From a virus (Duplodnaviria; Caudoviricetes), in IMG/VR virus record IMGVR_UViG_3300028832_000100: a DNA stretch of 64,000 bases. One strand, written 5' to 3'. The notes below the pieces were generated by a model. It was not told the origin of the DNA. It was given only the letters and a program-made list of their open reading frames with translations, and did not search any database. Below are positions 20,604 to 60,970 of this stretch, piece after piece (position 1 is the stretch's first letter; the number at the start of each line of letters is the position of its first letter). Both the position numbers and the translations under genes were made by a program.

Positions 20604-23600
20604 TTATTCTCCTAAAATTTCTTTCAATATAGATTGTTCAAATTCAGAATGAATTTGTGAAAATTCACTGAATTTATCTTCTGTTTTTGGTACAAAATTT
20701 TCATATTCCTCTTCCAAATGGCTTGAATAGTCGTTAAAATACCACTGCTTCTCTATTTCAACATCGCACTTAAAAGGAACATTTGATATCTCTGGTTGTG
20801 CTGACTCCCTCATTATTTTAGACAGGAGTTCTGCAACACGATCTTTATTTTCTTGCGGACACTCACCAATTAACTCCATTCGTGCACTTAAAAATGCACT
20901 CGACTATATCTTATATCTGCAATATATCTTCTTGCTTCCATTTAAGGGTTGTCATCCCACTATGCATTTCAGCATAGCCGTACTCTACTTGCTTCTCAAT
21001 AGTTAGTTATATATGCAGTTCCTAACTATCTATGCTTTCGATAGTCTGTGAGGGTAGAAATGTTTTATATAATAAACTATCTATATTATTACTTATAAGA
21101 AAATCACGAACATCTTTATTCATTTCACATGCAACAGATTTTGGTACATAAACATACGGAAAACATCTTCCGTCTTTTTTTCTATCAAATCTCAAAGCAC
21201 ACCGCTTTTGTGGGTAAAATGAAAAAATCTTATCTATAAGCAAATTAGTTTCTTCTATACTAAATGAATTACAATATATGTGCATATAATGTTTTGTTTT
21301 GTGCAATGAACCATCATCTAAATATAAAAGGATGATACCATAAGAATCTAAATCTTCTATTGCTGATTTTAAACTCATATTTCCAACCAATGTTGTTTCA
21401 ACTGTTACATGCGTTGTTATGCCATACATGTTTGAATTTTTATTATACCCTGAAAAGCATTTTATATCTTTAGTTTTCAAACCAAAACTTTCAAGTATGC
21501 TTCTTTTATACTCCACATAATCTCTTTTTATTGAGTTTGTAGAAACCCGATATCTCTTATTTTCTGTTACATTTTGTGTTATATAACATCCATCGCCTAA
21601 TTTTAAACTTAATAGTAATTGATATAGTTTATTATTCATATTTCTCTCCCTGCTGATTGGCTACACGCGAATTGTTCACGATACGCACTATATTTTCACT
21701 TAATAATACAATAAGTAATAGGGCGTTTTTGCTTTCCAGCATATCAAGAAGTTTATACACGACAAGTTTTTGACTATGGTCTATCGTGTACAGCGATTAG
21801 CAACTTGAATCCAAGTTCTTTCAGTTCCTTGCTATTATGAACATTTATCATTGCAAGTTTAGACATAGAAGCAGCACCGCCTTGAACCCTTGCGTTTACA
21901 CACTGACGTTCTGCCTGTGAAATAAATCCACTATTGTCTTTAATCTGTATACCGCATTTTTTAGCGTTTTCTATAATACTGTTGATTTGATTTTTTCCTC
22001 TTGCATTTGATAAAAGTTCTTCAAATTTTTTAACATTTGGATCTTCTTTTTTAATCCCGTTACACCCCAGTATTGGATTAAATACAGAACCGAACGATTC
22101 ATTTGTACTTTTTATCTCATATCTTGGGAGCGCAAGGTCTGGAAGTCTTCTTCTACGACCCCAAAAATCTTCGACATACACATTCTTCTTTGCAAATTCC
22201 ATAGTGTCTTCAATCCATTTCTTGACTTTAGGAAATCCAAGATAAAACTTATCAACAATATCTTGTGCTTCTTTAATATCAATATTAAGACTGGCTGCTA
22301 TTGACTTTGCTCCCATCCCATAGCTGATTCCCAAATGGAGTATTTTCATCTTTTTTCTTCTTGTTTTTCCTTCTGGGTTTGGGCTTCCATCCTCATGTCG
22401 CTCCATATTGTCCCAATAGGAGTTATGATATACCCCTGTACCAATTGTGGCATAAAAATCACGACCACTCTTAAAACCATTTATCATAGTTTCGTCGTTT
22501 GAATAAGATGCCATAATTCGAGGCTCTTGTTGCTCTATTTTCATGTGTTACCACATGGTTCGGACTATCTCTTGTACACAAACATGTGTACCCCTCTGTT
22601 TCGACATATAAAATGCCTACTCTACTCGGTTACTCGGTTTTACCCTACCCTTTCGATAGTCTCTACGCACATTAAATATATTTCCAGAACATGCCCGCAA
22701 ACTCTACTTTGCAGACATCGCTCTTTTTAATTTTTGACATTATGTGTTTCAACGAAAGTGATTCAAATTCTGTGTTTTTCTTAACCCACAAAGCAGCGCT
22801 TTTTACGCTGTCAAAAATAGTATCAGACCCATCAGATACGCTTGTTGCTACCACCTTGATTCTTCTTTTTCTTGCGGTTGCTTCTATTGCATCTATTGGT
22901 CTTTTTTTACCTTTTCCATGGGTATTTCCTTTTAATTTGTTGGATATCTTATTTCTGGTTTCCTGAGAAAACCCATGTTCTTTTCTAATAGCAGTCATTT
23001 TTTCTGATATTTTCCTACGGGTATCCTCAGACTGCATCCTTCTCTTATGTCTAACTTTTACACACTCTGAATCCATTGGGTTTGAATCTCCTCCTGGAGT
23101 ATTATTATACCCGAATTCAGATGAATTTGAATTGTAAAAACTGATCCAATACATTTCTTTGTAGTTAAGATCGTCTTCATTATCCGCTGAATCAATTTCT
23201 TCCACGGTAAAATTTTCAACACCATATTTACGCATAGATTCATACAAATGATAATCACAATGATTCCTATATCTATTCATGTGGTTTTTCCATCTGTCGT
23301 CTAGTGACTTCTTAGTTTGTCCTATATACACTTTTCCGTTTATGGTGTTTGTTATTTTATAAATTATCATATGTGATCTCCTTAATTTAATAGTCTTACA
23401 ATATTATATACAATTAAAGACATCACACAACAAGTTCAAATATATTTAATTTGGCACGGGATTGACCACAAATGGAGAACCACACCACAAATGGCTTTCC
23501 CCGTTTAAGAGGGTTTTACTTCAGCCAACATTAACCGAAGTCGGATCCGACCAGCACATTTCCGTCTTCTGCTGTAAACATTAAGCGAATCTCATTATTC

Positions 23601-25290
23601 TTCGATGGTATATTTTGCATTATGTTATCGTTAGCCTCTTTATGCTAACCTCTATGAGTATGTAGTTTTCCTCATAGTTCAGACTATATCATTAACCTAT
23701 TATAACCTTTCAGTGAAATAGGTTATTGTGCGCTCGTGCGAGAATTATTGATTTTATCTCTCATCTCGTAGTCGTTGCTCCTTCCACAGACTTTCTCTGT
23801 GGCTTGGATCAGGATTGGGACAAAATTTACTACATCCTTTCCCTGAATTCACACAATTTTCATCTCAACATTACTGTTGAGTGCCTCCGTAATTAAAGGT
23901 TTGGATCGCTGGAACTAAATCTTCCTGTATCTGCCCCAAGAGTGTTAAAATGTGCATGAAGTCTATTGTCTTTTACTGAAACTACTTTTGGTAACTTATC
24001 AATATAAGTATTTACTAATTTTAACAAACCTCTCTGCTCTAATATCAGTTTTGTTATTGGCAGATCAATTTGTTTTAGTATTCCTTCTCCTGTTCCTCTT
24101 GGTGTTTTTGGATCAATAACACCAACTTTTAGAATGTCATACAAAAAAACTGCAAGTTGAGATGGACTTGATGTATTTAATGGGTTTTCCACTATATCTA
24201 CATCAAAAAATCTGTATGGTCCTTTTCCATCCATATCGTCAAAAGGATATTTCTTTCTTACAGCAATTGGATCTTTTCTGTCATTAGCACTTGCATATAC
24301 TCTATCAAGTTTATGTTTTTGCTTCCATTCTTCTATGACAGGCTCGTACTCTTTTAGAGCACTTTTAATTCTCTTATCACAATCTTCCAAAAGGAGATTA
24401 TATTTCTTGCTCAAACGATCACAATAAGAAGTATCTAATGCAATCCCGGTAAGTTCCATAGAAGCAGCGACAGAGATGATTGGGAACTCAATCCTAAACA
24501 GCAAATCCAATAACTTCCTATTCTCTGCTTTATTGTATTGAACCCATTGCCAATCATATAACTTCAATGTCATAAACGGGTCTGTCGCTGCATAAAGAGC
24601 AAATACCTCTGGACTTACAACGGCATAATCTATATCCTTGAAAAGATGTTCTATTGAATACTTCTCAATACTTCCATCAATCTTTGAAATGTACTGATCC
24701 TTCAAGGAGTATGACTTTTCATTCTCGTCTAAAATCTTTGCGGCAACAAGTGTGTCCCAATATATTTTAAGATCCACCCCTGTTGTGCATTTTATTACCT
24801 CGTAGTCAAACTTTGCATTATGATAAACAGTTTTTGTATTCTCTAATCGAGAAAATTCTTGCTTAATATCATCTTCTGAAAGTTGGTCTTTCAACCGTTC
24901 TCCGCTATGAGGGTCAACATGGTTCAATGGAATATATGCATTTTTCATTCCATAAGTATAAATACAAGGACCCATTAACTTACAAGTTAGCGGATCCAAA
25001 CTCATGTTTGTTTCGGTATCTATTGCTATTATTCCGTTCTCTATTGCTTTATTGATATATTGATGCAAAGATTCCCTGTCCTTTATAACAACAGTGTTTT
25101 CTGCATACTTGCCAAGTATTCGATATACTTCTTCACGAATCATTCTTAACTTGGTATCTATATCAACCTTACCGCCTGACCGTTTTCTTACTTCTTTTGG
25201 GGAACTAATCTTGTTGAGTACATTTTTGATTGCTTCTAACGAATCTTGTGGGGAGAAAGAATCTCCCCACAAAGATACTTCATAGCCCAT
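20604..25290 (-). CDS. polA: Family A DNA polymerase (3'-5' exonuclease + polymerase), spliced: exons 25290-23896, 23617-23534, 22532-21783, 20876-20604 (833 aa)
   Basis: Exonuclease motifs DTET/HNAKFD/YAATD; joined junctions give TGRFSSSDPNL|QNIP, GSDFG|QQEPR (motif A) and VHD|ELI (motif C); the 84-nt exon 2 was found manually. Confidence 0.93.
20877..21782 (-). mobile_element. Group I intron polA-I3 (906 nt) with LAGLIDADG ORF
   Basis: P1 UACACGAU/GUCGUGUA with U.G; UGCUGG..CAAUCAGCAG (P4); GACUA / GAUAUAGUC (P7); ends in omega-G. Confidence 0.9.
21022..21639 (-). CDS. Intron-encoded LAGLIDADG homing endonuclease
   Basis: LKLGDGC and LYLDDGS double motif; F.IEE..LL. Confidence 0.85.
   Translation of the reverse strand: MNNKLYQLLLSLKLGDGCYITQNVTENKRYRVSTNSIKRDYVEYKRSILESFGLKTKDIKCFSGYNKNSNMYGITTHVTVETTLVGNMSLKSAIEDLDSYGIILLYLDDGSLHKTKHYMHIYCNSFSIEETNLLIDKIFSFYPQKRCALRFDRKKDGRCFPYVYVPKSVACEMNKDVRDFLISNNIDSLLYKTFLPSQTIESIDS
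22533..23533 (-). mobile_element. Group I intron polA-I2 (1001 nt) with GIY-YIG ORF
   Basis: P1 ACUUCGGU/GCUGAAGU; P4 ACGGG/CCCGU; AGAGACUA and GAUAGUCCG core; ends in omega-G. Confidence 0.9.
22672..23370 (-). CDS. Intron-encoded GIY-YIG homing endonuclease with NUMOD3-like repeats
   Basis: IYKITNTINGKVYIGQT, GYN..PGG, SEDTRRKIS / SQETRNKIS. Confidence 0.92.
   Translation of the reverse strand: MIIYKITNTINGKVYIGQTKKSLDDRWKNHMNRYRNHCDYHLYESMRKYGVENFTVEEIDSADNEDDLNYKEMYWISFYNSNSSEFGYNNTPGGDSNPMDSECVKVRHKRRMQSEDTRRKISEKMTAIRKEHGFSQETRNKISNKLKGNTHGKGKKRPIDAIEATARKRRIKVVATSVSDGSDTIFDSVKSAALWVKKNTEFESLSLKHIMSKIKKSDVCKVEFAGMFWKYI
23618..23895 (-). mobile_element. Group I intron polA-I1 (278 nt), no ORF
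   Basis: P1 CCUU/GAGG; P4 UCAGG/CCUGA; AACGACUA and GAUAUAGUCUG; ends in omega-G. Confidence 0.9.
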
Positions 25291-26105
25291 CAATAATACC
25301 TCGTAGGTCTTTCAGCGGTTGGTGCTGTCGTACTCATCGGTACTTCCCACGGCTTTGCACCTGTCATCGGAATGTCATTTGGTGCAAATTGCGGTTGTGC
25401 GGGAGTTGGAATTGGCGCAGGTTGAGGCGCAACAGGCTGACTATAATCTCTCTGATATGCAGGCGTTGTAGCAGGTGCGCTTCCCTGTGGCGTTTGATTG
25501 TTCTTAGCAGGGAATGAACCGGTTTCCAAAAAAGTGTTCATCTCCTGTGCGTTCTTATTGAGTACATGGGAATTGAGAATAGAGAACCCATCGAAAGCAT
25601 TAGGAATATTCGGGTAATACTGCTCTGGATAGTTTGCAGGAACACAGTAATTGATGCTGTATGTTGTCTTCATGTCACCAGGCGCACCATTTCTCTTAAT
25701 CTTGAAAAGATTTTGGGAAAGAGGACCGTACTCTGTAATCTTATTGTAGAGGTCGTCCGCAAACCATGCAGGTCTTTCCCATACCTTAGGTGTGGGAACA
25801 ATCGTCCCATTTTCTGATTTTACATACTCAATGAGGTGTACAAAGATTCTTGTCATAAGTTTAACATTCTTTGCACAAAGCGGACAGGTTTCTACGGGAT
25901 CTTTCGGATCTCTGATGCAGTTCACATTCCGAAACTTTCCACCGATGTTGACGCTGTGCACAACAGCAATGTCAAACGAATCGGGTGTGTCGTGCATAAA
26001 CCTAACAACCGCCTCATCATTGTTGTTTTTCAAAGAAAAAAATCCAACCCCTGTATTAGATCCATTTGAATTTCTTTGAATTTCACCATACGAAATTTGT
26101 GCCAT
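25290..26105 (-). CDS. Single-stranded DNA-binding protein (gp32-like)
   Basis: FFSLK..DEAVVRF, C..DP....CPLC, KIKRNG..GDMKTTY; Pro-rich tail. Confidence 0.7.
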   Translation of the reverse strand: MAQISYGEIQRNSNGSNTGVGFFSLKNNNDEAVVRFMHDTPDSFDIAVVHSVNIGGKFRNVNCIRDPKDPVETCPLCAKNVKLMTRIFVHLIEYVKSENGTIVPTPKVWERPAWFADDLYNKITEYGPLSQNLFKIKRNGAPGDMKTTYSINYCVPANYPEQYYPNIPNAFDGFSILNSHVLNKNAQEMNTFLETGSFPAKNNQTPQGSAPATTPAYQRDYSQPVAPQPAPIPTPAQPQFAPNDIPMTGAKPWEVPMSTTAPTAERPTRYY

Positions 26106-33157: not shown

Positions 33158-33213
33158 GTGAGGGGAACATCCCCATCAGTTGGTGGACCATGATCTTTCG
33201 ATCAGCCCATGTA

Positions 33214-51607: not shown

Positions 51608-53437
51608 TTATTTCTTTCCAACAAGAACTCTTCCGTAGATTCTCTTTGCGTTTCCGTCCTTGTTTTCTTTTGCATTGTATTTATAAGTTAAACTTTCTGC
51701 AATAAATTTGCTTCCATCTACCTTACCAGTAAATGTAAATGCTCTCTTGCAGTTTGAAATACCTTTGTTTTCTCCGAGGATCTTAACCTTTCCTGTCTTT
51801 GTCTTGCATACTGACTCAAACATAAAGGAAGTATCTCTGTTCTTACCTGACTTAAATCCGATTACACCTTCAACGATGAGTTTTCCATCTTCAAGTTTGC
51901 AACTTTTTGACTTGAATGAATTTACATTCTCATAAACTCTCTTCAAATAACTTTCTCCAAGTTCATCGATCTGTTCTTCATCAACCTCATCGATGTCATC
52001 AAGACTAATTTCATCAGACTTGATTTCCTCAATGGTTTCGTCAGAAGCAGGAACAATCATTTCGTCTTTTGACTCTCCTTCTTCTTTCTTCTCGGTTTCA
52101 ATACGGATTTTTTCTTTGTCGGTTTCGACCTCTATTTTTTCAACAGATTCTTCAACCTTCTTATCTTTTTTAGAACATTTCTCTGACTTGCAACTTTCTT
52201 CAAGTGTGCCAATATAAGAGAACACTTCTTCCTTTTCCTCGTCTGTGTCATAAACACCGGCACATTCTTTATCTACAAATTCAAGTGCAACATCTGCGCC
52301 AGAGCGACCGACCTTTTTCTTGAACTTTTCCCACTCATCTGCAATGGTGGCAAGTTCTCCGTAAGACAGACCTTCTTTGATTTCTTTCTTCTCGTCATCT
52401 CTTTGAGCATCAGCATCGTCAATCGTTTTCTTCAATGCTTTCCTTGCTTTTTCAACACGGTTGTCGCGCTTTGCATCAATACGATCTGTTTTAGAAGTCT
52501 TATCTTCTTTTACTTTCTTAAATGTTTTCTTTACAGACTTTCCACAGGATTCTTCCATGCTCTGTGGGTAATCAGAAGCAATTTGATTTCTACTGTCTGC
52601 CTTAAACCCATGTTGCTTCAAAAACTCTTTTACATGACGGAGAGTGGTGGCAGACAAATCCCACTTCGGTAGAAGAGTAACTTCACCCTTTTCAATTATT
52701 GCAACTGGTGTATCATAAGAGTAAAGTGTTTCCTTATCCCCTTGAACATCTACCTGTGCTTTCCCACCAAAAGACTTTCTGCTATCAAATTGAGTGTTGA
52801 GACCATAAATTGGAGATTCTTTAAGACCGTTTTTCTTTAACTGATAGTCTCTATCGGAATCAGCATCATCTTTCTTACGCATGAATCTCGCTCTTGCTCT
52901 TTCTTTTTTGTTATCTGCAATAGCGTCGATATCGTCACGAGTTCTAGGAGTTACTTTTCTTCCCTCTTTGAGAGATTCTCCAAGACCTTCTTCATCGGTG
53001 AAGTCATCTTCTTTTTCGGAAACCTTGACTTTTTCCTCGTCGCCTTTTTCTCCCTCTTCTGTCTTGTTTTCAACTTCCAACTCAACATCAGAATAGGGTG
53101 CTACTTCACCAATAACTTCAAACCCACCAACATCATGGCAGTAAGGACATTCCACTGAAATATCAACAAGGTCAGAATCTTCATCATAAGTAATCTTGTC
53201 CTTGTCTGCGTAGTGCATGGTATGGCAAATCGGGCAGTTGAGAATTACTTTTCCAACATAGGAATCTTCAATATCCCCTTCGTCATCTGCTTCCATGTCA
53301 ATGACTTCAACAGTTTCATCTGCAATGTCATCATCAAGAAAATCCTTTAACTTTTCTGTGCCTTCCTTTGAGAGTTCAAAAAGTTCTTCATCAAGGCAAT
53401 CAAGTTTTTTGAAGGCTTCAGCTATATAATTAGCCAT
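51608..53437 (-). CDS. Acidic modular head/core protein with zinc ribbon
   Basis: CPIC..CPYC; modules bounded by ES motifs; internal repeat. Confidence 0.55.
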   Translation of the reverse strand: MANYIAEAFKKLDCLDEELFELSKEGTEKLKDFLDDDIADETVEVIDMEADDEGDIEDSYVGKVILNCPICHTMHYADKDKITYDEDSDLVDISVECPYCHDVGGFEVIGEVAPYSDVELEVENKTEEGEKGDEEKVKVSEKEDDFTDEEGLGESLKEGRKVTPRTRDDIDAIADNKKERARARFMRKKDDADSDRDYQLKKNGLKESPIYGLNTQFDSRKSFGGKAQVDVQGDKETLYSYDTPVAIIEKGEVTLLPKWDLSATTLRHVKEFLKQHGFKADSRNQIASDYPQSMEESCGKSVKKTFKKVKEDKTSKTDRIDAKRDNRVEKARKALKKTIDDADAQRDDEKKEIKEGLSYGELATIADEWEKFKKKVGRSGADVALEFVDKECAGVYDTDEEKEEVFSYIGTLEESCKSEKCSKKDKKVEESVEKIEVETDKEKIRIETEKKEEGESKDEMIVPASDETIEEIKSDEISLDDIDEVDEEQIDELGESYLKRVYENVNSFKSKSCKLEDGKLIVEGVIGFKSGKNRDTSFMFESVCKTKTGKVKILGENKGISNCKRAFTFTGKVDGSKFIAESLTYKYNAKENKDGNAKRIYGRVLVGKK

Positions 53438-53508: not shown

Positions 53509-54222
53509 TTAGTCTACTGGATATGGTAAAGACATATTGGTATCAAGGAACTCTCTCAATGCCGTAAGTTCTGTATTTCCTTCTTCCAACATTGTTTCCC
53601 CGTCTTGTGTCCATAAAGCATTGGATTGAGTAAATCTTGTTCTTATTCTTCCAAGAGCAATTTTACATCTTGCTAATGACATTCTATGAATAATATCAAT
53701 CCAGAAATCAGATGTAATCTGTGACACATCATCAAATCTCGGTATATATTCTATTGTTATCGCTTGCGGAAAATCATAAGAGCAATTTACATATAATTTT
53801 TCAGAAGGTTTATCATACCGATATGTCAAGTCTGTTGAAATTGTATTTCTTATCTGTAATGCTATGTTCCATGCAGCATAGTTCTGTGCAAATGTTTGTA
53901 TGCCATAAGTACCACCATTACCCGAAAGCATCTGCCATTGAGCAAGATACATGGGATCCATTGGTGTTCCTAACTCACCTTCTCCACCAACCATATATCC
54001 AACGGCACGATAAACGGCTGCAACGGAACTTATCTCATATTTTGAAACATCAATACAAGGACTATATGGGACAGTAACTATTGCTGTTGTATTTATATAT
54101 CTCTGTACTTCTCTTAATGAGGAAGATATCGCTAAGGCAAGCGCAGAGTCGTCAATCTCTAAGGTAAGAACACCACCGGATAACTCAAATTTTATTTCTT
54201 CCATGAGAGCAGACATATCCAT
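53509..54222 (-). CDS. Neck / head-tail adaptor (gp13-like)
   Basis: I...L.G....LEI, W.......LA..K..LG.IR.RF, DGETML.EG..E. Confidence 0.75.
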   Translation of the reverse strand: MDMSALMEEIKFELSGGVLTLEIDDSALALAISSSLREVQRYINTTAIVTVPYSPCIDVSKYEISSVAAVYRAVGYMVGGEGELGTPMDPMYLAQWQMLSGNGGTYGIQTFAQNYAAWNIALQIRNTISTDLTYRYDKPSEKLYVNCSYDFPQAITIEYIPRFDDVSQITSDFWIDIIHRMSLARCKIALGRIRTRFTQSNALWTQDGETMLEEGNTELTALREFLDTNMSLPYPVD

Positions 54223-54249: not shown

Positions 54250-54280
54250 CAGAAGGGCGTTAAATGAATAACGCCCTTCT
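54250..54280. terminator. Stem-loop downstream of the MCP gene
   Basis: AGAAGGGCGTTA...TAACGCCCTTCT. Confidence 0.5.
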
Positions 54281-54359: not shown

Positions 54360-57300
54360 TCAGCCAGCAGTAGCAGTGTATACAGGACTTGCGTTAGTAC
54401 CATATACACGAGAAGCACCCTCAACCTTACCTGCAACAAGAAGCAGAGGATTGAGAACCTTCAGATCGTACATTGTGGACCCAATTGTATTTATTATAAG
54501 TCGCTACCTTATAACGGGAATCTTCTTCCCCTCTTACTTTCATAAGAGTTTAGACTATATCTTCATCCTTTTCAGGATGCACACCATTTCGGATTTGCTT
54601 AAATCCTACTCCCATATTTGGGATAGTCGTTGAACCTTCAGATCAAAGATCAGCTTGGCTGCTGATTGCCCATTGCATCTTTCATTTAGGTTTGCGCCTT
54701 GTGAAAATCCATTCTATTGTTTCTACTTTCGTAACCATTTAGGTTAGAATGGCTTTAGGGGTTTCCAGCAATTAAATGTGTTATTTTTACTACACATTAC
54801 TGTGTAGCAGACCTTTACGCTGACTTCTTATGCAGCGTATTCCAAGCCTTGAGTAGTTCCACCGTCGCTGTACTGCAACAGCTGAGTGGGAACAACTGGC
54901 ATATCGTTTATGTTTTATGTGGATCACTACACCACATATTGCTTATTAGCAACTCTATATTTCTATAGAGACCAGACTATATTATCATCTTTTCAGATGT
55001 GTAACCTTTCGGATTCGTTTGAACCCTACACCGCGCTACCGGTTAGTCGTTGAACCTTTTCCTATTCGGAACTTGGCTGCTGATTGCCCAATCCAAATAA
55101 TTTTCAAACATTCGCACTTATCCTTTCAGATTATGCTGTAGTTTATTTGGCTCTAAGGGTTTTCCAGCAATTAGTTACATTATCAATTGATTATTTCTAA
55201 TCAATGCCACTATAGATTGGATTGTTTTTAAGCAACCAATTCTAATGGAGCGTACACAGCTGCACTACTCATCATGTCCTCACCGTTAAGACCAAATGCA
55301 AACTTACCGGATGCAATGGAAGGAGATACAAAGATCTTGATTCCATTATAGGTCTGTTTTCTTTTCTATCAATCGTTACTTGATAGAGATAATTTCTTAT
55401 CCTCTTACTTTCATAAGAGCAGAGACTATATCTTCACCCAACGCATTGGGTGCAACCCATTTCGATACCACTTGATATCTACTCCAGATTTGGTCTGGAT
55501 AGTCGTTGAACCTTTTCCTATTCGGAACTTGGCTGCTGATTACCTAATCATAGCAACTTCTTAAAACTATCACAATTTGGCTTGTTTCATCCATTTGTTG
55601 TAGTGTACTACGCTCTAAAGGTTTTCCAGCAATTAGAGTTGTCTATTATTCTGCACATCTCTGTGCAGCCTGGCTATAAAGTTTAACCAGCAAGATATGG
55701 ACCGTTTACACGGGAGATTCCTTCAGCGGGTTTGAATCCACTAAGGAAGGAAATAACACGAAGAACATCAGGAGCGATCAGCATGTAGTTAGGACTGACT
55801 ATTGTGTTTACTGAAAATCGCTACTTTTCAGCACGATAATATACATGCTTGATATTATCGTCACATACTTTCATATGTGTACAGACTATATCTTCACCCT
55901 ATTTAATAGGGGCAACTCACTTCGATTTCGCTTGAAATCTACTCCATAAAGGATAGTCGTTGGGGCTGTAACTACTTGAGTTCCCTGCCTGCTGATTTCC
56001 CAATCCTCTAACTTTTCAAACCTTCATATCTTCATCGCTGAAATACTGTGGTATAGAGGCTATAAGGGGTTTCCAGCATATCGAGTTGTTTATTTTTACG
56101 CTACATCACTGTAACGAGAAGCTATAAAATTTAACTTCTGAGTTCTGTTGTAAATAATGACACGACCTGCTTCGATGATATCTGCAAATGACTCAAAGTG
56201 CTGAGCCATAGAAATACCAACAGGAACAGTGCGGTCAAAAGTAAGGGTGGCAAGTTCATCAACAGATGTTGCTTCCTCTGCAGTCTTCACAAGAAGATTG
56301 ACTACTTCAGTGTCAATTTCCAAATATGTTACGAATAAGTCAATTTCGCTTATTCTCTATAACTTATGTATTTGTTATAGTTCAGACTATATCATGTACC
56401 TATATTGATTTATCCTTTATAGGTACCCATGCACTTCCACCTCTTTGAGGTGTACTCTACTCATTTATTCATCTGAATATTTCTTTCAGATTATACTTTC
56501 GATAGTCGTTGAGCGTTATTTATTTAGATGATACTATGTACCATCCTTGATTTATATAAGCATCAATATTAAAATCTTGAATCATTCTGTATTTAGGAAA
56601 TATCACATCGTGTGACATTTTTCTTCTTCCTAAATGTGAAAGCCTATCAAGAAGTTTCTGATTTTCTGACTGGGATTTTCCAAACATTCCATTATTTTCA
56701 CCAGACGACAATGCACTGTGTAGCATCTTTAATTCATCTGACTGATGCCAACGATTTCCATAATTACTGTTTTTAGAACCAATTCTTTCGGTTCTAAACT
56801 TTTTCTTCGTTTCATCAGAATGTTTGCGACCTTTGAACATCGGTCCTCCCGGTCCACAATCTCCACCCTTACGTTTGTTGTATCCAACCAATGGGTTTCT
56901 TGAATCTAATTTATCAATCCAGAAGATTTCCTTCTGATTTAATTCATCTAAACTGTCTGCGGAATCTATCATCTCAACAGACAATCTTTCTTCAAGTGGT
57001 ATATTGTCTTGCAAGCATTTCTTTCTTATTCTTGAAATAAGAAGACCACTTCCAACGTACTTAATACCAACAAACTTGCTTGAGTGGTGTTTTCCAACGT
57101 AAATTTTTCCGTTAGATAGATCAGTTGTTTTATAAATATATCCAAACATTTTATACCTCCGAAGTACAAAACATAATAAAAGTGCGGTAATCTGAAATTT
57201 CGGAGATTTCAGAATTGGTAGCTACTCCCTTGTCCCGCACAATATATGATACAATTTTATATTGTGCTTTATATCAAGTTTTCAATAAATCTTCGCTGCT

Positions 57301-59355
57301 GATTGCCATGCAGATGACACTAATCTGCAAGGTTTTCCAGCAATTCACATGGTTTTCACTAATATATTGCTATATTAGGCTACAAAAAGTTTATAGTTCA
57401 GTTCTGCAACAGCACGTTCTGCCAGCTGCTCTCCAAGATCAAAACCATAATCCTGCTTTGCCTGCCATGCAGCAATGTTTGAATAGTACACGGCAATTCT
57501 ACGCGCTTTTGCAAGCAGAGGCATAGCCTTCATCTCAGCAGTGAGAATAGGAAGATCGTTCTGAGGAATGACAACATTATTATAGTTGTAATTGAATACA
57601 ACATTACCAGTGATTCCGCTAGTAAGAGTGATAGCAGGAGTGCCAGTAGAGTAAATCTGTTCAACACCGTTGTAAGCAACACCCTTGGTAGCAGTATTAC
57701 CATAAACGATAGTACCTGCTTCGGATGCGCCAGTAATGTTCTTCACAAAACGACCAGCGACACCTTCGAGATGTCCGTTGTTAGGATCAACTGCTTCGGT
57801 TACATAGTTAGTAACAACTGTAACAGCTGCTCCATCTGCATAACTGTAGATTTTACCGTTACCATCATCAAGGTAGTTAGTGGTGCCAACCTTGAAGGAA
57901 ACGGTGCCGGGGACTACAGGACCCCAGTTAAGAGCGATTGAGGTAGTAGAATCTGCAAAACTCTTGGATTCTTCAACCTTAGATGCTGTGAAATCGGTGT
58001 CAACCTTTCCACGAGCAAAAGGATTCTCAATCAGATCACCAACGCTTGTCTTACCTTTATTTGAGCCATATGAGTATTCAAGATAGTTTACCAATTGTGT
58101 TACGAATACTTCGCTTATAAAAGTATTCTCTGCATATTTCTATGCAGTTCGGACTATATTATCAGCCAAGATTGTTTTGTCCTCTCTTGGTTGCCAGCTC
58201 TTTCCATTCCACTTGGAATGTACTCTACTCACTTCTTCACAAGAATATTTCTTTCTTGCTATGCTTTCGATAGTCTCTGAACCTCCCACTATACAATGGT
58301 TTGGCTGCTGATTGTCCTTTCGGAGTTTCCAGCAATTTAACTGGTTTTTGTCATTCATGTTACCATGAAAGGGTTACGTCATGCTACATAACCACTCATG
58401 CTCGACATCGGGTAAGTAATTACCAAATCACATTTATCTTGCGTGTAAATCGTTTCCACTTACACTCTTATCATCACTGATAAGATGAGACTATATCATA
58501 GTCCAAACTTGATTTATCCTTATTTGGATTCCATGCACTTCGACTTCACTTGAAGCCTACTCTACTCATTTATTCTCTATTGTTTTTCTCAATAGATATA
58601 CTTTCGATAGTCGTTGAACCTTCCTGCCAAATTAGGCAGACTTGGTTGCTGATTGTCTTAATGGCTAATTTTTAAGACTTCCCAGCAATTCACATGGTTT
58701 TTTCTGCAAACATTACTATTTGCAGCCTCTGTTAAAAGGCAATAAGATTTGGTACGGTAATATTTACCAAATTTAGTGCAAATTTCTTAACATTTTTATT
58801 GCAATATGCACAATTATGCATATTTCTTGATATTACTATCAAGATTAGACTATATCATCATCCAATATTGCTTTTACCCTTTATTGGATGCCTCGCGCTT
58901 CGGAAACTTTTGCTCCTACTCTACTCATTTACTCATCATCATTTTTCTTGATAACTACATTTTCGATAGTCGTTAAACCTTCCGTTCAAAGAACGGCTTG
59001 GATTTTTGTTGTCCTACTGATTGCACTATTTCAATAGGAGTTTCAAAAAGTTCACGAGGTTTTCTACATAATATGAATTTAAGGGCTAACTTCTTAAATT
59101 GTTCTCATATCTGTAGGATCTCAATAAATATTACTATTTATTGCTCCTTTATATGGGAAAGAGTCCCATGTCGGAACGCTGGGTTCCAACGGAGTTCTCA
59201 AACTGCTCAGTGAGAAACTTGGAAGTGTTGTCAAGAAGTCTTGCAACAGCAATCTTCTTGGCTTCAGTAATGCGAGTACCGTTGTGTGCCTTCATGTGAA
59301 CACGGTCGGCAACAGCAAGACGGTTCTTGTACTGTTCAAATAGTTTGTTAGCCAT
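54360..59355 (-). CDS. Major capsid protein (T4 gp23-like), 9 exons: 59355-59160, 58790-58736, 58430-58388, 58091-57393, 56320-56134, 55798-55686, 55353-55245, 54904-54845, 54481-54360 (527 aa)
   Basis: Spliced frame is continuous (1584 nt) with gp23-like motifs PNLIAFDLVITYPM, QAKQDYG.D, ELNYEIDTE, PNYML, GPYLAGT, AVYAPYMP, QGWSTMYD; follows the prohead protease. Confidence 0.93.
54482..54844 (-). mobile_element. Group I intron MCP-I8 (363 nt, no ORF)
   Basis: P1 AGGCU|U / AGGUCU; AAUUGCUGG, CAAUCAGCAGCCAAG, AACGACUA, GAUAUAGUCUA; omega-G. Confidence 0.9.
54905..55244 (-). mobile_element. Group I intron MCP-I7 (340 nt, no ORF)
   Basis: P1 CCAU|UA / UAGUGG; same core motifs; omega-G. Confidence 0.9.
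55354..55685 (-). mobile_element. Group I intron MCP-I6 (332 nt, no ORF)
   Basis: P1 CUGGU|UA / UAGCCAG; core motifs; omega-G. Confidence 0.9.
55799..56133 (-). mobile_element. Group I intron MCP-I5 (335 nt, no ORF)
   Basis: P1 AGAAGU|UA / UAGCUUCU; core motifs; omega-G. Confidence 0.9.
56321..57392 (-). mobile_element. Group I intron MCP-I4 (1072 nt) with GIY-YIG ORF between P6 and P7
   Basis: P1 CUAU|AAA / UUUGUAG; core motifs; omega-G. Confidence 0.9.
56520..57149 (-). CDS. Intron-encoded GIY-YIG homing endonuclease with NUMOD3-like repeats
   Basis: GYIYKTT..NGKIYVGKH..Y.GSG, GYN...GG, HSDETKKK. Confidence 0.92.
   Translation of the reverse strand: MFGYIYKTTDLSNGKIYVGKHHSSKFVGIKYVGSGLLISRIRKKCLQDNIPLEERLSVEMIDSADSLDELNQKEIFWIDKLDSRNPLVGYNKRKGGDCGPGGPMFKGRKHSDETKKKFRTERIGSKNSNYGNRWHQSDELKMLHSALSSGENNGMFGKSQSENQKLLDRLSHLGRRKMSHDVIFPKYRMIQDFNIDAYINQGWYIVSSK
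58092..58387 (-). mobile_element. Group I intron MCP-I3 (296 nt, no ORF)
   Basis: P1 GGUUAU|GU / ACGUAACC; AGAGACUA, AUAUAGUCCG; omega-G. Confidence 0.9.
58431..58735 (-). mobile_element. Group I intron MCP-I2 (305 nt, no ORF)
   Basis: P1 GCCUU|U / AGAGGC; core motifs; omega-G. Confidence 0.9.
58791..59159 (-). mobile_element. Group I intron MCP-I1 (369 nt, no ORF)
   Basis: P1 CUCU|UU / AAGGAG; P4 variant UUUUUG/CAAAAA; AACGACUA, GAUAUAGUCUA; omega-G. Confidence 0.88.
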
Positions 59356-59377: not shown

Positions 59378-60970
59378 TTATTGAATAAATTTTTGCACGA
59401 ATGACTCATCAATCATGTCATCAGAAGAAATATTATTTGCTTCTCTTTCAATCATGCTGTCATTCGATTCGGAAATTCTCATCCTCTTTTGAGTTAATGA
59501 GAAGGGCAACTTGCTAACATTCAATGCGTGTTGCTCTACACTTTCACAAATTCTATCAATATCATTGAAGGAATAATTTTGGGGTAACTGTCTCTTAATT
59601 TCAGAATCAGACACCCCTAAATGTAGTGCCTTCATACTGATGTACTTGTTTACGGCAGTCTTTGCTACACGCTTGTACTGTTCAACAAGTTGTGTTTGTT
59701 CGTTGATTTTTTTCTCGTACTTCTCTTGAAGTTGAGATAGGTTTTCTTGGTATTCTTTGTTCTTAATGGAAGAATTCTTTTTCATATCAGAAATACTCTC
59801 CACAAGGGACTTCTTCTCTCTTTCAAAAGATTCCTTCAAAGAAATATTCTCTTTCCTTGCTTCATTCAACCTGCAATGAAGTTCGTTTGAAGATTCTTTC
59901 TTTTCATCCAAACTTTCTTGAATACGCTTTGCGGAAGCTCTTTGCATGCGAATTTGACCTTCAAGATCACGAGAACTGTTTTCCAATTTTCTAATCTCTT
60001 GGTCTTTTTCTTGCAAATCTTCTGTAAGTTTCTGAACCTCTGCTTTTAACTTTGATTCAGATTTTTTGGAATCACTCAATGTAACTACTGCACTCTTGTA
60101 CCGACTAACTTCTTCTACAAGTTTGGTTTCTTTTGCATAGCAAACTGATAACTGCTCTTGGAGAGAAATTATCTGTTCCTTAAGTTTTTCGTTAGCACCC
60201 AATGCTTCCTGCAATTCCTTGACTGTTGTTGCCATGACATCATCACCTGCAACGACTTCTTCAGAATCGTTTTCTTTATTACTGTCTTCCTCTATATTAT
60301 CGACGTTTTCGGTGTCGTTAATATCAATATCCAATTCTTTTAGTTGCTCTTCCATAACCCTCTTATCATCAGCACTTGCATGTTCCAACGATTCTTTAAG
60401 AGCTTGTTTGAGTGACTTCTTATTTGATAAAGACTCTGTTACATATTTCAGTCTTGCTTCTTTCACTGCTGGAACAAGAACGGCATCCCAACACTCACAC
60501 TCAAAAGTAGATGGCTCAACAGATTCAGATCCGTCCATCTCCTCATAAGTATCTCCTGTCCCTCTGCTTGAAACACCGATGTGGCTTCCATAATCACAAA
60601 GAGTTTTCAAAATTCTTCCACAAGGAGTGTCAAGAATATCAAAAACACCATGAATTTTTCCATCACTACCCTTTTTAGGCATCTCTGCCATACAGATAGC
60701 AATCTTTTCCGGATCAACTTCGGTTCTTTCTGCTGGATGACCAAATTCACCTACAAAGACTTTTTCTCTGATTTTCTCTTCTGTAAGTGGATCACTGAAA
60801 AACTTTTCCCACAATTTCTCGCTATAAAAACGATTGTTTCTTGTGGGGTTTTTCATATCAGCAATAACACCTACAAGTCTACCTAAAATTCCTCTGCTAG
60901 CCTGTTCTTCGGCTGACAGTTTATTGTATTCCATTTCTTTTACTGCATTGTAACTTTCTAACATCTGCAA
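59378..60970 (-). CDS. Prohead protease (gp21-like) fused to a coiled-coil scaffold
   Basis: RNNRFYS, GEFGHP, ILDTPCG, GVSSRGTG, WDAV..P; long C-terminal coiled coil. Confidence 0.9.
   Translation of the reverse strand: MQMLESYNAVKEMEYNKLSAEEQASRGILGRLVGVIADMKNPTRNNRFYSEKLWEKFFSDPLTEEKIREKVFVGEFGHPAERTEVDPEKIAICMAEMPKKGSDGKIHGVFDILDTPCGRILKTLCDYGSHIGVSSRGTGDTYEEMDGSESVEPSTFECECWDAVLVPAVKEARLKYVTESLSNKKSLKQALKESLEHASADDKRVMEEQLKELDIDINDTENVDNIEEDSNKENDSEEVVAGDDVMATTVKELQEALGANEKLKEQIISLQEQLSVCYAKETKLVEEVSRYKSAVVTLSDSKKSESKLKAEVQKLTEDLQEKDQEIRKLENSSRDLEGQIRMQRASAKRIQESLDEKKESSNELHCRLNEARKENISLKESFEREKKSLVESISDMKKNSSIKNKEYQENLSQLQEKYEKKINEQTQLVEQYKRVAKTAVNKYISMKALHLGVSDSEIKRQLPQNYSFNDIDRICESVEQHALNVSKLPFSLTQKRMRISESNDSMIEREANNISSDDMIDESFVQKFIQ

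Follow-up and report, generated by a model that had tools for sequence, protein, structure and literature searches.

A T4 gp23-type major capsid gene with eight group I introns in an uncultivated cattle-gut phage

The window analyzed here is the whole 64,000-nucleotide (nt) stretch of IMG/VR virus record IMGVR_UViG_3300028832_000100, which originates from a bovine gut metagenome. The DNA belongs to a large, uncultivated phage of the cattle gut. Its minus strand carries, from 59355 to 54360, a major capsid gene of the T4 gp23 type, flanked by a prohead protease gene and a head-tail adaptor-like gene. This is very probably a working capsid gene interrupted by eight group I introns, all of which would have to be removed to give one 527-codon mRNA.

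We mapped the exons by tblastn with three intron-free homologues of 525 to 529 amino acids as queries. Residues 1 to 523 of an intron-free homologue of 525 amino acids were covered by nine collinear pieces, far beyond what chance would give. The exact splice sites were chosen from all donors ending in T and acceptors preceded by G that keep the frame open, by their fit to the homologues. The nine exons (Table 1) sum to 1584 nt, that is, 527 codons plus the stop, and the eight introns take up 3412 of the 4996 nt, or 68% of the gene. When the spliced protein was aligned with 15 intron-free homologues, no gap fell at any of the eight junctions, and junction 8, at which a T is joined to GG, restored the tryptophan of a conserved QGWST motif. 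The original prediction for this locus had counted the same intronic length and a single 527-codon frame, restored at eight junctions in phases 0, 1, and 2. The homologue-guided map reproduced those counts exactly, the gapless alignment agrees with the frame, and the two junctions quoted at the time (GGACTCT joined to TTAAGAAA and GAACTAT joined to GAAATTG) are both correct. It had further warned that ORF calling misses six small exons (43 to 122 nt) and that standard annotation would miss or fragment such a gene; the open reading frame (ORF) listing of the capsid locus yields fragments only, the largest being the 233 codons of exon 4.

Three other gene structures were considered and rejected. 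Placing junction 8 so that it encodes leucine (donor 54844, acceptor 54480) leaves no U.G pair and breaks the QGWST motif. Dividing intron 1 into two introns flanking an exon-like relic that lies within it introduces a stop. Finally, no core-less mini-introns were found; the spliced coding sequence is collinear with that of the closest relative found, the IMG/VR contig L002, with no extra insert.

Each insert was compared with the Rfam model of the group I catalytic intron (RF00028; gathering score, 50 bits). Seven of the eight matched it at 55.7 to 87.5 bits, each over the full model. Intron 4, which is split by a 630-nt ORF, scored only 21 bits, in its 5′ half. We also trained a covariance model, R1, on the seven other introns, using their 3′ halves (P7 to P9) and leaving intron 4 out. 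R1 found the 3′ core of intron 4 at 56357 to 56514, directly after the ORF stop (66.6 bits; E = 6e-11), and the 5′ and 3′ parts of this intron align with introns 1 to 3 motif for motif. A P1 helix with a U.G pair at the 5′ splice site, comprising 4 to 6 exon-side and 1 to 3 intron-side pairs, was found in all eight introns, as were P4, P6, and P7 motifs and a terminal G. Every intron also has a two-hairpin insert of 35 to 50 nt after the 5′ strand of P7 and runs 35 to 63 nt beyond Rfam's P9. With the usual core and additional hairpins, some beyond P9 and others separating P7 from P3′, the eight look like introns of the phage IA type. Introns 1 to 4 represent one variant, with a long first hairpin, and introns 5 to 8 represent another.

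The helices of the 3′ core covary. Across P7, P7.2, P8, and P9 in 45 distinct 3′ cores from the window and its relatives, 98% of the cells were paired and 19 of 24 pairs showed compensatory changes, as counted on a model-fitted alignment that is biased towards structure. The covariation score was 0.71, against 0.19 for shuffled alignments and at most 0.12 for slid ones, and none of 500 shuffles reached the observed values. P7.2, the second hairpin of the insert, covaries across the family as well. In addition, an in-frame stop lies 0 to 12 codons past every 5′ splice site, nearer than at random offsets (P ~0.007). Early in-frame stops in introns have a known role in keeping ribosomes from unfolding the ribozyme. 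Because the covariance models, the core motifs, the U.G pairs and terminal G residues, and the exact restoration of a conserved gp23-type frame all agree, we regard the eight inserts, on these sequence criteria, as bona fide group I introns.

Exon 4 matches the major capsid proteins of Bacillus phage vB_BceM-HSE3 and Listeria phage LIS04 and hundreds of metagenomic proteins of the Gp23 family (Pfam PF07068; curated cutoff, 24.4 bits), several of which are full length, intron free, and 64 to 70% identical. The homologue P0002, which shares 68 to 70% identity with the exon pieces of the window and exon 4, scored 89.1 bits against Pfam Gp23 and matched the T4 gp23 structures 5vf3, 6uzc, and 8gmo (E = 3e-5 to 1e-4). 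A 436-residue exon of L002 scored 71.9 bits against the same family. The L002 protein is 85% identical to that of the window, and its gene has two introns, after codons 71 and 91, and runs continuously across the positions of window junctions 3 to 8. Between the two spliced coding sequences, nonsynonymous divergence (dN) was 0.12 and synonymous divergence (dS) was ~1.3, giving a dN/dS of 0.09 with no indel; judged from this comparison, the capsid gene is under strong purifying selection.

The ribozyme and capsid assignments of the original prediction thus held when searched. It had called eight group I introns, of which seven passed RF00028 and the eighth was recovered through its R1 3′ core; the P1 U.G pair, the P4 and P7 motifs, and the terminal G it described were seen in all eight; and the gp23-like motifs it had noted are all intact, in a protein whose homologue P0002 matches Pfam Gp23 and the T4 structures. 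It had also named, as the opposite outcome, a separate intact major capsid gene with this locus decaying; there is no capsid paralogue within the window, and the dN/dS is that of a maintained gene.

Table 1. Exons and introns of the capsid gene, the intron-encoded ORF, and the adjoining head genes
Feature	Coordinates	Strand	Details
Prohead maturation protease, upstream	59378..60970	-	Pfam Peptidase_S77, E 1.4e-12; PHROG 207 head maturation protease, E 1.9e-30
Exon 1	59160..59355	-	196 nt, Met1 to first base of codon 66; tblastn, P0002 residues 1-66; ends in the U that pairs with G in P1 (CUCU/GGAG)
Intron 1	58791..59159	-	369 nt, no ORF, phase 1, codon 66; RF00028 63.3 bits at 58826-59106; terminal G at 58791; in-frame stop 3 codons in
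Exon 2	58736..58790	-	55 nt; P0002 residues 67-84; gapless alignment
Intron 2	58431..58735	-	305 nt, no ORF, phase 2, codon 84; RF00028 83.0 bits at 58467-58746; P1 GCCUU/GAGGC with U.G
Exon 3	58388..58430	-	43 nt; P0003 residues 84-98, 93% identity
Intron 3	58092..58387	-	296 nt, no ORF, phase 0, after codon 98; RF00028 74.7 bits at 58130-58399; P1 GGUUAU/GUAACC
Exon 4	57393..58091	-	699 nt, 233 codons; 64-71% identity to intron-free Gp23-family (PF07068) proteins
Intron 4	56321..57392	-	1072 nt, endonuclease ORF in P6 region, phase 0, after codon 331
Intron-encoded homing endonuclease ORF	56520..57149	-	209 aa; PHROG 314 "homing endonuclease," E 1.2e-22
Exon 5	56134..56320	-	187 nt; P0002 residues 331-392
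Intron 5	55799..56133	-	335 nt, no ORF, phase 1, codon 394; RF00028 55.7 bits at 55862-56143; P1 AGAAGU/GCUUCU
Exon 6	55686..55798	-	113 nt; P0002 residues ~393-428
Intron 6	55354..55685	-	332 nt, no ORF, phase 0, after codon 431; RF00028 85.8 bits at 55402-55695; P1 CUGGU/GCCAG
Exon 7	55245..55353	-	109 nt; P0002 residues 429-464
Intron 7	54905..55244	-	340 nt, no ORF, phase 1, codon 468; RF00028 78.9 bits at 54953-55228; P1 CCAU/GUGG, enclosing an extra hairpin
Exon 8	54845..54904	-	60 nt; P0002 residues 466-485
Intron 8	54482..54844	-	363 nt, no ORF, phase 1, codon 488; RF00028 87.5 bits at 54531-54842; P1 AGGCU/GGUCU with U.G
Exon 9	54360..54481	-	122 nt including TGA stop; P0002 residues 486-523
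Head-tail adaptor-like, downstream	53509..54222	-	PHROG 211 head-tail adaptor Ad2, E 9.3e-9

From the sequence we infer that splicing takes place, that the ribozymes act unaided, and that the introns arrived by homing. In the mechanism that we propose, all eight introns would be cut from the late transcript, leaving a single mRNA of 527 codons, and full-length capsid protein would be made once all nine exons had been ligated. Each excision would be a guanosine-initiated, two-step transesterification in which the U.G pair of P1 and the terminal G set the cuts. The early in-frame stops should halt translation before ribosomes reach the ribozyme as it folds. The introns themselves appear to be mobile, site-specific lineages that circulate among related phages of the gut and rumen, most likely gained through endonuclease-driven homing during coinfection.

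Several points weigh against a working gene from which all eight introns are removed. None of the sequencing runs listed as carrying the locus is an RNA run. Besides the structural bias of the covariation count, P1 of intron 1 has only 4 exon-side pairs and P1 of intron 7 is interrupted by a hairpin, which leaves the efficiency of these introns uncertain. The Gp23 assignment of the spliced protein runs through homologues that are 70 to 85% identical to it, and Pfam gave no match to single exons of the window. The search for a second capsid gene covered the 64-kb window of the genome.

It is unlikely that one or more of these introns, although real group I introns, are nonautonomous, needing a protein helper or splicing poorly, with capsid output limited or timed by splicing. 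The helper under this unlikely account might be an RNA chaperone supplied by the host or the phage, or the intron 4 endonuclease if it has a maturase-like activity. The short P1 of intron 1 and the interrupted P1 of intron 7 fit it, and with eight splicing steps in series in the late gene that is expressed most, even modest inefficiency would presumably be costly. Metatranscriptomes, moreover, supported only 37 of 76 predicted introns of the Jug phages (PMC12880540). Set against this, the cores are complete, with seven introns above the Rfam threshold and the 3′ core of the other found by R1, and the helices covary across the intron family. Classical phage IA2 introns, furthermore, self-splice in vitro.

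We consider it very improbable that the phage is defective and that its capsid gene here, swamped by selfish introns, is decaying and unexpressed, with a working copy elsewhere. The 68% intronic share would suit such decay, and our paralogue search was limited to the 64-kb window of the genome. That search found no second capsid gene, however, and at a dS of ~1.3 from L002 there is neither an indel nor a stop and dN/dS is 0.09. The conserved motifs are all intact, and the canonical position after the prohead protease is kept. The layout also persists, at a few percent divergence, in cattle-gut samples from another study.

The assembly itself appears sound. Contigs of the likely source run tile the locus without differences, at an even depth of 18 to 21 across the pieces, and break only within repeated intron cores (~55056 to 55073, 55512 to 55529, and 58596 to 58622). 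In runs of another study, introns 7-6-5 and likewise introns 8-7-6 lie with their exons on single contigs that diverge by a few percent. Since the source contigs tile cleanly and these contigs span several introns, the multi-intron layout is not an assembly artifact. No intron-free alleles were found among the DNA contig joints, which link repeated intron cores and lie off the predicted boundaries. The idea that repeated cores stitched the introns of several phages into one gene has in its favor the breaks inside conserved cores, but we give it almost no weight, as the exon order is perfectly collinear with the protein, depth is even, single contigs of independent runs span several introns and exons in unchanged order, and a core-to-core misjoin could swap intron halves but not make eight precise insertions.

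To place the gene among its relatives, we mapped the exon structure of 79 related loci (587 kb) from metagenomes. R1 gave 37 matches on these loci. Every match had the orientation of the capsid gene and fell either within such a gene or at its cut edge, although capsid genes account for only 21.5% of the bases scanned; Rfam independently confirmed 14 of the introns found in this way. Twelve of the 52 full-length capsid genes carried introns: seven had one, three had two, one had three, and one (L063) had five, leaving 40 without any. A partial gene, L081, also had five introns, and the eight of the window are the maximum in the sample. The introns occupy no fewer than 18 different positions, which group in the conserved first 100 codons and around codons 330, 393, and 427 to 431. 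The flanks of the insertion sites showed no excess conservation (17 to 27 of 30 nt, against a gene average of 77%). An insertion near residue 500 of one locus, L009, was considered as a further intron, and R1 did not confirm it.

Four window sites recurred exactly in relatives, at codons 98 (phase 0), 331 (phase 0), 394 (phase 1), and 431 (phase 0), in capsid proteins only ~55 to 60% identical to that of the window. At all four, the same-site intron was the best match among ~40 introns, by a clear margin at three and a small one at 98. Intron 3 (site 98) matched the L081 intron best. At site 331, where L017 and L018 both have introns, the best match of intron 4 was that of L018; the window and L018 introns carry homologous endonucleases, and the L017 intron is ORF-less. 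Introns 5 and 6 (sites 393 and 431) were closest to ORF-bearing introns of L063 (181 and 196 bits), whose ORFs of 263 to 283 amino acids have no counterparts in the window introns. Same-site introns were usually one another's closest relatives, a kinship that fits site-specific homing. That the lineages keep to their sites and vary in whether they contain an ORF fits a history in which introns spread by endonuclease-driven homing and later lost the endonuclease gene. L002 has an intron at none of the eight sites used in the window, which implies fast turnover of the introns.

L063 and L081 (1 to 4047), with five capsid-gene introns each, are distant relatives. The five introns of L063 (2697 to 10256) are all ~1.2 kb and contain ORFs, with GIY-YIG/NUMOD3 types among them; those at sites 393 and 431 had no Pfam match.

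Intron 4 alone carries an endonuclease gene; the other seven window introns have no ORF. Its product matched Pfam NUMOD3 (E = 5.9e-5) and begins with a GIY-YIG-like sequence (GYIY...YVG). The match to Pfam GIY-YIG itself was above an E value of 0.01, and homologous ORFs in L006 and L063 match that domain. It is 49% identical to the ORF of the same-site (331) intron of L018. The L018 ORF (1017 to 2012, codon 331) has 4 in-frame stops, all TGA, at least 2 of which align with tryptophan. We rejected the idea that it is a decayed endonuclease gene; because all of the stops are TGA and stand at tryptophan positions, the L018 phage probably reads TGA as tryptophan. At the L018 locus, ARAGORN found no tRNA and Rfam found one, at 2870 to 2933.

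Intron 1 contains, at ~59076 to 59111 on the minus strand, an imperfect copy of the joined ends of its two flanking exons that agrees at 27 of 36 positions. It reads FKKLALK, compared with FKKFALN in the capsid protein, and the mismatches in its 3′ part fall at third codon positions. This suggests that the relic may be the remnant of a foreign capsid allele brought in with the intron; no donor allele was found among the 79 relatives.

The window has other features of note. A family A DNA polymerase gene (20604 to 25293, minus strand) is also split: its exons at 23893 to 25293 and 21774 to 22544 both match Pfam DNA_pol_A, and an ORF-less group I intron lies at 23660 to 23906 (Rfam, 70.8 bits). 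A second polymerase intron has its 3′ core at 22541 to 22668 (our covariance model, 49.6 bits) and a GIY-YIG/NUMOD3 ORF at 22672 to 23370, and a LAGLIDADG ORF lies further downstream of the polymerase introns, at 21022 to 21639. Between the capsid stop and the next gene, a 12-bp GC-rich hairpin at 54251 to 54280 is terminator-like on the plus strand and may be bidirectional. Downstream of the head genes, 51608 to 53437 (minus strand) encodes a very acidic, modular protein of 609 amino acids that matches only PHROG 4264 (unknown function), and that in its central part. The Rfam DUF3800-XI small RNA motif was found at 33162 to 33209 on the minus strand (57.4 bits; gathering score, 37.8). A search for cultured relatives, in which 24 kb was compared by megablast with 50,697 phage records, found none.

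Introns in phage capsid genes have precedents. Mycobacteriophage LittleE and lactococcal phage Tuc2009 each have a single group I-type intron in the major capsid gene, and that of LittleE is spliced efficiently in late expression, as established by reverse transcription-PCR and N-terminal sequencing (PMC3706429). The present gene differs in having eight introns rather than one, and the capsid families are unrelated. In the crAss-like Zeta group, cMAG OLRF01000054 has its capsid gene in five fragments, with intron-type domains encoded by three of the four segments that separate them, and crAss-like phage genomes have up to 14 introns (Yutin et al. 2021, PMC7886860). There too, the major capsid gene of a gut-metagenome phage is fragmented by several group I-type introns in a way that complicates annotation. 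The capsid family and phage order are different, however, and the fragments number nine here, compared with five. The introns of OLRF01000054 were recognized by endonuclease domains, whereas seven of the eight described here are ORF-less and were identified by an RNA model and exact junctions. The Jug (jumbo gut) phages average 18.5 group I introns per genome, splitting essential genes such as terL, and about half of their introns were confirmed by metatranscriptome reads (PMC12880540). Their introns are spread over many genes, with 2 to 3 fragments per gene, in contrast to the eight in one gene seen here, and in the relatives of the window R1 matched only in the capsid gene.

Staphylococcus phage Twort is described, in a citing account, as having three group I introns in one gene, orf142 (Landthaler and Shub 1999, cited in PMC6669764). 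That gene, like ours, is a protein gene with several related small group I introns and short exons, such that exon skipping is possible, and Twort is a phage of Gram-positive type, a further likeness to the window phage. It has three introns and not eight, and its splicing was shown by experiment, whereas ours is predicted from sequence. To our knowledge, orf142 is not established as a capsid gene. The T4 td, nrdB, and nrdD introns (IA2) share with ours the ribozyme class and general layout, with extra hairpins that in ours look like the P7.1/P7.2 type, P9 extensions, and an early in-frame stop, and I-TevI of T4 resembles the intron 4 protein, a putative GIY-YIG-type endonuclease with a NUMOD3-type DNA-binding motif encoded in a peripheral loop. 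Unlike ours, the T4 introns occur one per gene and in nucleotide-metabolism genes, and T4 gp23 is intron free. A broader parallel is fungal mitochondrial cox1, a single conserved gene that is a sink for many site-specific mobile group I introns. Its introns vary in presence and absence, gain and lose endonucleases, turn over slowly, and often require protein maturases. The window capsid gene is a similar sink, in a virus rather than an organelle.

We found no paper in the literature with more than four interruptions in one phage gene. The background given with the original prediction, that phage introns are mostly known from nucleotide-metabolism and replication genes, with about three in the multi-intron cases, is outdated, as capsid-gene introns have been published (PMC3706429, PMC7886860). 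The eight-intron capsid gene is therefore extreme in number and not new in kind. The survey of the family, with introns in 12 of 52 genes, at least 18 sites, and same-site kinship, is a new result.

The survey invites a bolder idea, which we think quite doubtful: that the gp23-type gene of this lineage of gut and rumen phages, with its at least 18 sites, is an arena for intron warfare and that the load of eight introns is kept for an advantage and not as tolerated selfish DNA. If so, the advantage could be that the introns or their endonucleases cut and convert the capsid gene of rivals in coinfection; an intron endonuclease of PhiPA3 has been shown to act against a coinfecting rival (PMC11620839). 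Alternatively, capsid synthesis could be paced by splicing kinetics.

Because six of its exons are only 43 to 122 nt long, standard gene callers would report a phage without a full capsid gene, and intron-aware annotation is therefore needed for gut viromes. If splicing proceeds as predicted, the most abundant virion protein of the phage would depend on eight ribozyme reactions on one transcript, making the locus a natural test case for genes with many introns under bacteria-style coupling of transcription to translation. With about a quarter of the related capsid genes bearing introns, at many sites and with and without endonuclease genes, the family offers good material on the gain-and-loss cycle of homing introns in nature.

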